The notes under the pieces were generated by a model. It worked only from the letters and a program-made list of their open reading frames with translations. It ran no database searches and had not been told where the DNA came from. From NCBI RefSeq assembly GCF_003334765.1, contig NZ_QOWT01000118.1: a stretch of DNA of 491 nt, one strand, 5' to 3'. The position numbers were made by a program, and so were the translations under genes. Each line of letters opens with the position of its first letter. Within the stretch, counting starts at the first letter, position 1. Positions 1 to 491 of the stretch are shown here, piece by piece. The DNA is from Escherichia coli (GTDB taxonomy: Bacteria; Pseudomonadota; Gammaproteobacteria; Enterobacterales; Enterobacteriaceae).

Positions 1-491
1 GAGCAGGCTGAAGCCCTCCGTCAGAAAGACCAGCAACTGAGTCTGGTTGAAGAGACGGAGGCCTTCCTGCGCTCTGCACTGGCACGTGCCGAAGAAAAGA
101 TCGAAGAAGATGAACGGGAAATAGAGCATCTGCGGGCTCAGATAGAAAAACTGCGCCGGATGCTGTTCGGAACCCGTTCTGAAAAACTGCGTCGTGAGGT
201 TGAACAGGCTGAAGCCCTGCTGAAACAACGCGAGCAGGAAAGCGATCGTTACAGTGGGCGTGAGGATGACCCGCTGGTTCCCCGCCAGTTGCGACAGTCG
301 CGCCATCGTCGTCCGTTACCGGCACATCTCCCCCGTGAAATATACCGCCTGGAGCCTGAAGAAAGCTGTTGCCCGGAGTGTGGCGGTGAGCTGGATTATC
401 TGGGGGAAGTCAGCGCAGAACAACTGGAACTGGTGAGCAGCGCCCTGAAAGTGATCCGCACAGAACGGGTAAAAAAAGCCTGTACAAAATG
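1..491 (+). CDS. tnpC: IS66-family transposase (TnpC/ORF3-like), N-terminal region; partial at both ends (start codon upstream of window, catalytic DDE region downstream)
   Basis: Seen in sequence: frame 1 is open across the entire window (163 codons, no stop), while frames 2 and 3 hit stops early (TGA at 38-40 and 9-11). Translation contains RRMLFGTRSEKL (nt 154-189), RRPLPAHLPRE (nt 307-339) and CCPEC-x33-CTK[C] (nt 367-491). Established knowledge: this combination and order (leucine zipper, then MLFGxxSEK, then PLPxxLPRE, then CxxC zinc finger) is the conserved N-terminal layout of IS66-family transposases. Not in the ORF track only because it has no stop within the window. Confidence 0.85.
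16..165 (+). other. Coiled-coil / leucine-zipper segment of the transposase (heptad-spaced hydrophobic residues)
   Basis: Seen in sequence: hydrophobic residues at window-frame positions L6, L13, L27, I34, I41, I48, L55 (7-residue spacing, one skip at position 20), with additional d-like positions L44 and L51. The intervening residues are strongly charged (E/K/R-rich), typical of a dimerisation coiled coil. Established knowledge: IS66 transposases carry an N-terminal leucine-zipper domain (Pfam family name LZ_Tnp_IS66, from memory). Confidence 0.6.
367..491 (+). other. Zinc-ribbon / zinc-finger motif CxxC-x33-CxxC of the IS66 transposase (last Cys codon truncated by window end)
   Basis: Seen in sequence: TGT TGC CCG GAG TGT at 367-381 encodes C-C-P-E-C; TGT ACA AAA TG at 481-491 encodes C-T-K and the first two bases of a probable Cys codon (TGY). 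The spacing between the two Cys pairs is exactly 33 codons (nt 382-480). Established knowledge: matches the zinc-finger domain found in IS66 transposases (Pfam family name zf-IS66, from memory). Confidence 0.7.

Follow-up and report, generated by a model that had tools for sequence, protein, structure and literature searches.

A 491-nt window of Escherichia coli DNA as an internal part of tnpC of the IS66-family insertion sequence ISEc43

The 491-nt stretch of DNA analysed here as a whole (hereafter the window) lies, with a probability of about 97%, inside the DDE transposase gene (tnpC) of ISEc43, an IS66-family element, as it occurs in Escherichia coli and related Enterobacteriaceae. In a megablast search of complete E. 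coli genomes, the window was identical at 491 of 491 positions to chromosomal as well as plasmid genes annotated as 'IS66-like element ISEc43 family transposase', the name ISEc43 resting on the RefSeq PGAP annotation, and nothing was found that contradicts the identification as ISEc43 tnpC. ISEc43 is already known and catalogued, its family is well described, and the window does not depart from the element. Three features were assigned in the window:

1..491, + strand: internal tnpC segment of ISEc43 (IS66 family), codons 18–180 of 537 and element nt 949–1439 of 2,541 bp; open frame, 100% identity, mapped in the reference copy L004.
1..339, + strand: charged, heptad-like coiled-coil/leucine-zipper region with the LZ_Tnp_IS66 match at nt 127–339; 45% of the first 100 residues charged; presumed multimerisation module, as suggested by the family name and the composition.
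361..486, + strand: zf-IS66 zinc-finger domain, Pfam zf-IS66 i-E 3.4e-11; C..C motif located.

All 491 bases are open in frame +1, which runs through 163 codons plus two bases with 0 stops, and the remaining five frames contain 1–12 stops each. When the window was shuffled 20,000 times with its mononucleotide composition preserved, frame +1 was open in 21 shuffles and any of the six frames in 343. The GC content is also uneven between codon positions (75%, 40% and 53%). A Pfam scan of the 163-aa translation gave matches to LZ_Tnp_IS66 (window aa 43–113, i-E 3.4e-13) and zf-IS66 (window aa 121–162), and the NCBIfam model transpos_IS66 matched window aa 99–162 with an E value of 3.5e-12; it is solely the fragmentary nature of the window that keeps this match under the cut-off for whole proteins. 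The other Pfam matches were all weak and fell in coiled-coil families only, as expected from the D, E, K and R residues that make up 45% of the first 100 residues of the translation. The zinc-finger cysteines in the window are those of CPEC (aa 124–127) and C160-T-K; the window breaks off within the codon for the fourth cysteine of the CxxC...CxxC motif (nt 490–491 are 'tg', CTK|C), and this residue, just beyond the window, is present in the full-length TnpC, which reads ...KKACTKCDC.... Thus, the initial annotation, which had read one continuous frame with IS66 TnpC hallmarks over the whole window, had proposed a Pfam scan for these domains and had seen no evidence of a novel system, agrees with the open frame, with both domain matches and with the complete identity to a catalogued element.

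Within the coiled-coil region, an 18-nt direct repeat was observed at window positions 1–17 and 201–218, (T)GAGCAGGCTGAAGCCCT and TGAACAGGCTGAAGCCCT, the copies being 94% identical, and it encodes EQAEAL twice (window aa 1–6 and 68–73). A longer and weaker repeat (76%) joins positions 45–69 and 198–222. These repeats may reflect an old duplication of a coiled-coil segment within the gene, or may have arisen by chance in a low-complexity charged stretch.

The surroundings of the window were read from an intact copy on plasmid p1LS4 (NZ_CP024718.1; locus L004), which is identical to the window over the 491 bases. The parts of this reference copy are:

L004 1446–3986: ISEc43 element, 2,541 bp.
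L004 1531–1965: tnpA, 435 nt; matches two IS66 TnpA models, below their cut-offs.
L004 1962–2312: tnpB, 351 nt; IS66_TnpB (NCBIfam) 119 bits, cut-off 50.
L004 2343–3956: tnpC, 537 aa; transpos_IS66 (NF033517, NCBIfam) 448 bits, cut-off 180.

Canonical three-ORF IS66 elements have terminal inverted repeats that start with GTAAGCG, an 8-bp target-site duplication, and overlapping tnpA and tnpB upstream of tnpC. In all the reference copies L001–L004, tnpA and tnpB stand upstream of tnpC and share an overlap of 4 nt. On the 5' side of the window, 51 nt of tnpC are followed outwards by tnpB and tnpA; on the 3' side, 1,072 nt of tnpC lead to the right inverted repeat. Four Pfam domains were matched in the full-length TnpC, namely LZ_Tnp_IS66, zf-IS66, DDE_Tnp_IS66 (aa 196–486, 1.2e-95) and DDE_Tnp_IS66_C, the last two of which fall in the part of tnpC downstream of the window. 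The left end of ISEc43 reads GTAAGCGTAAAGCC and the right end ...TTGACGCTTAC, both termini beginning with GTAAGCGT as terminal inverted repeats, and the 8-bp target duplication GACCATTC is present on both flanks. When the element and one duplicate were excised in silico, a continuous 347-aa frame was obtained across the junction, that of the interrupted DUF1281 gene. Since the excision restores this frame and GACCATTC flanks the element, the insertion on p1LS4 arose by genuine transposition, with duplication of 8 bp of the target. An 8-bp direct repeat also flanks a published ISEc43 insertion in SGI1-B-Ec1 (PMC6531882), and 8-bp duplications are reported for IS66 (PMC6778807). The layout that had been predicted around the window, with tnpA and tnpB upstream, about 1.1 kb of tnpC with the DDE core and then the right inverted repeat downstream, and an 8-bp target-site duplication, is therefore the one seen in this copy.

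As to function, the window encodes the N-terminal, non-catalytic modules of TnpC. From what is known of the family, the charged coiled coil or leucine zipper may multimerise TnpC, and the zinc finger, most of which lies in the window, may bind the ends of the element, while catalysis would reside in the downstream DDE domain. In an intact element, TnpC would act together with TnpA and TnpB, the accessory proteins encoded upstream, a requirement that family knowledge suggests; transposition of the related IS679 reportedly needs all three ORFs. TnpC would then cut at the terminal inverted repeats and insert the 2.5-kb element with duplication of 8 bp of target. Among all PDB sequences, searched with the full-length TnpC as the query, no solved relative was found.

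What the sequence is should be distinguished from the state of the copy to which it belongs. Four copies that match the window at every base were compared, of which one is intact (L004) and three are defective: tnpC is frameshifted in L001, with 2 gap positions relative to the reference, and split by ISEc45 after element nt 2323 in L002 and L003. In addition, the 121-bp ISEc43::ISEc45 junction was found at a coverage of at least 80% in at least 602 of the 5,426 complete E. coli genomes. The chances are about even that the ISEc43 copy behind the window is decayed or interrupted, and is thus a pseudogene (with a frameshift, a truncation or another IS inside it) left by an old insertion that is no longer self-mobile. 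However, there is no lesion within the window itself, and at least one window-identical copy, that on p1LS4, is intact with a fresh 8-bp duplication. In either case, the question bears on the condition of the copy, and the identification as ISEc43 tnpC is the same.

ISEc45 is an element of the IS110 family, 1,446 bp in length, and the copies compared are 99.9% identical. It interrupts IS66-family tnpC at exactly one point, after ISEc43 nt 2323 and about 0.9 kb 3' of the window, at three unrelated loci:

L002:6375–7821: ISEc45, O104:H4 pAA plasmid.
L003:5375–6822: ISEc45, chromosome of strain 219.
L005:4061–5508: ISEc45, tRNA-Asp island of Nissle 1917.

The host IS66 copy in Nissle 1917 shares only about 89% identity with ISEc43 (nt 433–2323). 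Members of the IS110 family are targeted site-specifically by means of a guide ('bridge') RNA, and the shared site fits targeting of this type; common descent or recombination may also explain it. We consider it unlikely, though still a possibility of some weight, that the copy containing the window is itself among the numerous ISEc43-like copies that ISEc45 has split at this fixed 3' point of tnpC, where ISEc45 may be site-specific; the window itself holds no evidence either way. No curated bridge-RNA family of Rfam matched ISEc45, and the literature found on ISEc45, which consists of resistance or genome surveys, does not address its target choice in titles and abstracts. If ISEc45 does recognise this site in tnpC specifically, this would be a case of one IS homing into, and inactivating, another IS family.

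Some further rearrangements were observed at these loci. In Nissle 1917, the piece of tnpC on the 3' side of ISEc45 (ISEc43 nt 2323–2432) occurs twice in tandem (L005:5508–5617 and 5620–5838), each piece being about 95% identical to ISEc43, as a local duplication. In the O104:H4 pAA plasmid, a 215-bp piece of the ISEc43 right end (nt 2327–2541, 95.8%) lies inverted just upstream of the left end (L002:3809–4023), and the right-end piece after ISEc45 is only 66 bp long. These right-end pieces indicate rearrangement between IS66-family copies beside the virulence genes sepA and aat.

Sequences matching the window are widely distributed. They were found in 2,936 of the 5,426 complete E. coli genomes, with a median of 2 and a maximum of 45 places in each, and in 354 records the best place was at least 99% identical to the window. 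In PLSDB, 1,707 plasmids match, with Escherichia (1,382), Klebsiella (198), Salmonella (52) and Shigella (30) in the lead, and the plasmid matches at about 95% identity are mostly annotated as ISEc23. Moreover, seven phage records carry a relative with 95–99% identity. Short relics that cover only window nt 11–141, with 97–98% identity and annotated as 'hypothetical protein', occur on the large E. coli plasmids NZ_CP025708.1 and NZ_CP107123.1, and they are probably mis-annotated fragments of IS66 tnpC. As E. coli carries it in thousands of copies, chromosomal and plasmid-borne, ISEc43 is an ordinary element.

Considering how common such relatives are, the window might derive from another named IS66-family element, for example ISEc23 or ISEc8, all the more so as the relatives annotated as ISEc23, which are about 95–96% identical to the window, outnumber the exact matches. 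Nevertheless, they differ from the window at 4–5% of positions, and the 100% matches, among the matches listed, all belong to the ISEc43 family, so that such an origin is very improbable. The reading that the frame is open by chance, or that the real product is an RNA or is encoded on the opposite strand, has a negligible probability and is effectively ruled out by the strong family-specific domain matches, by the rarity with which shuffling keeps frame +1 open, the other frames all having stops, and by the lack of any Rfam match at E≤1 when the two strands of the window were scanned. The short ORFs of 21–60 aa in other frames and strands were likewise rejected as chance ORFs, since the coding frame that contains them is well supported and nothing else speaks for them.

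Copies of ISEc43 are a sign of accessory or rearranged DNA; they can disrupt genes, recombine with one another and lead to breaks in assemblies. For the window itself the significance is small, as it confirms a copy of a common catalogued IS and the interrupted target is beyond its reach; the interest, if any, is in what the flanks show to have been interrupted.

IS66 and IS679 are the founding and functionally studied members of the IS66 family. Compared with ISEc43 as annotated by RefSeq/PGAP in the p1LS4 copy, the window has the same 491 bases in the same frame, the same tnpC codons and the same domains; there is no difference inside the window, and the ends, the flanks and the integrity of the window's own copy are matters of the DNA beyond it. 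ISEc23 and related enterobacterial IS66-family elements share the organisation and about 95–96% nucleotide identity over the window, whereas the 4–5% divergence of ISEc23 sets it apart as a distinct named isoform or element. IS66 from Agrobacterium Ti plasmids and IS679 from E. coli share with ISEc43 the order tnpA-tnpB-tnpC and the 8-bp target duplication (PMC6778807), but they are different elements, likened to ISEc43 by organisation and not by sequence similarity.
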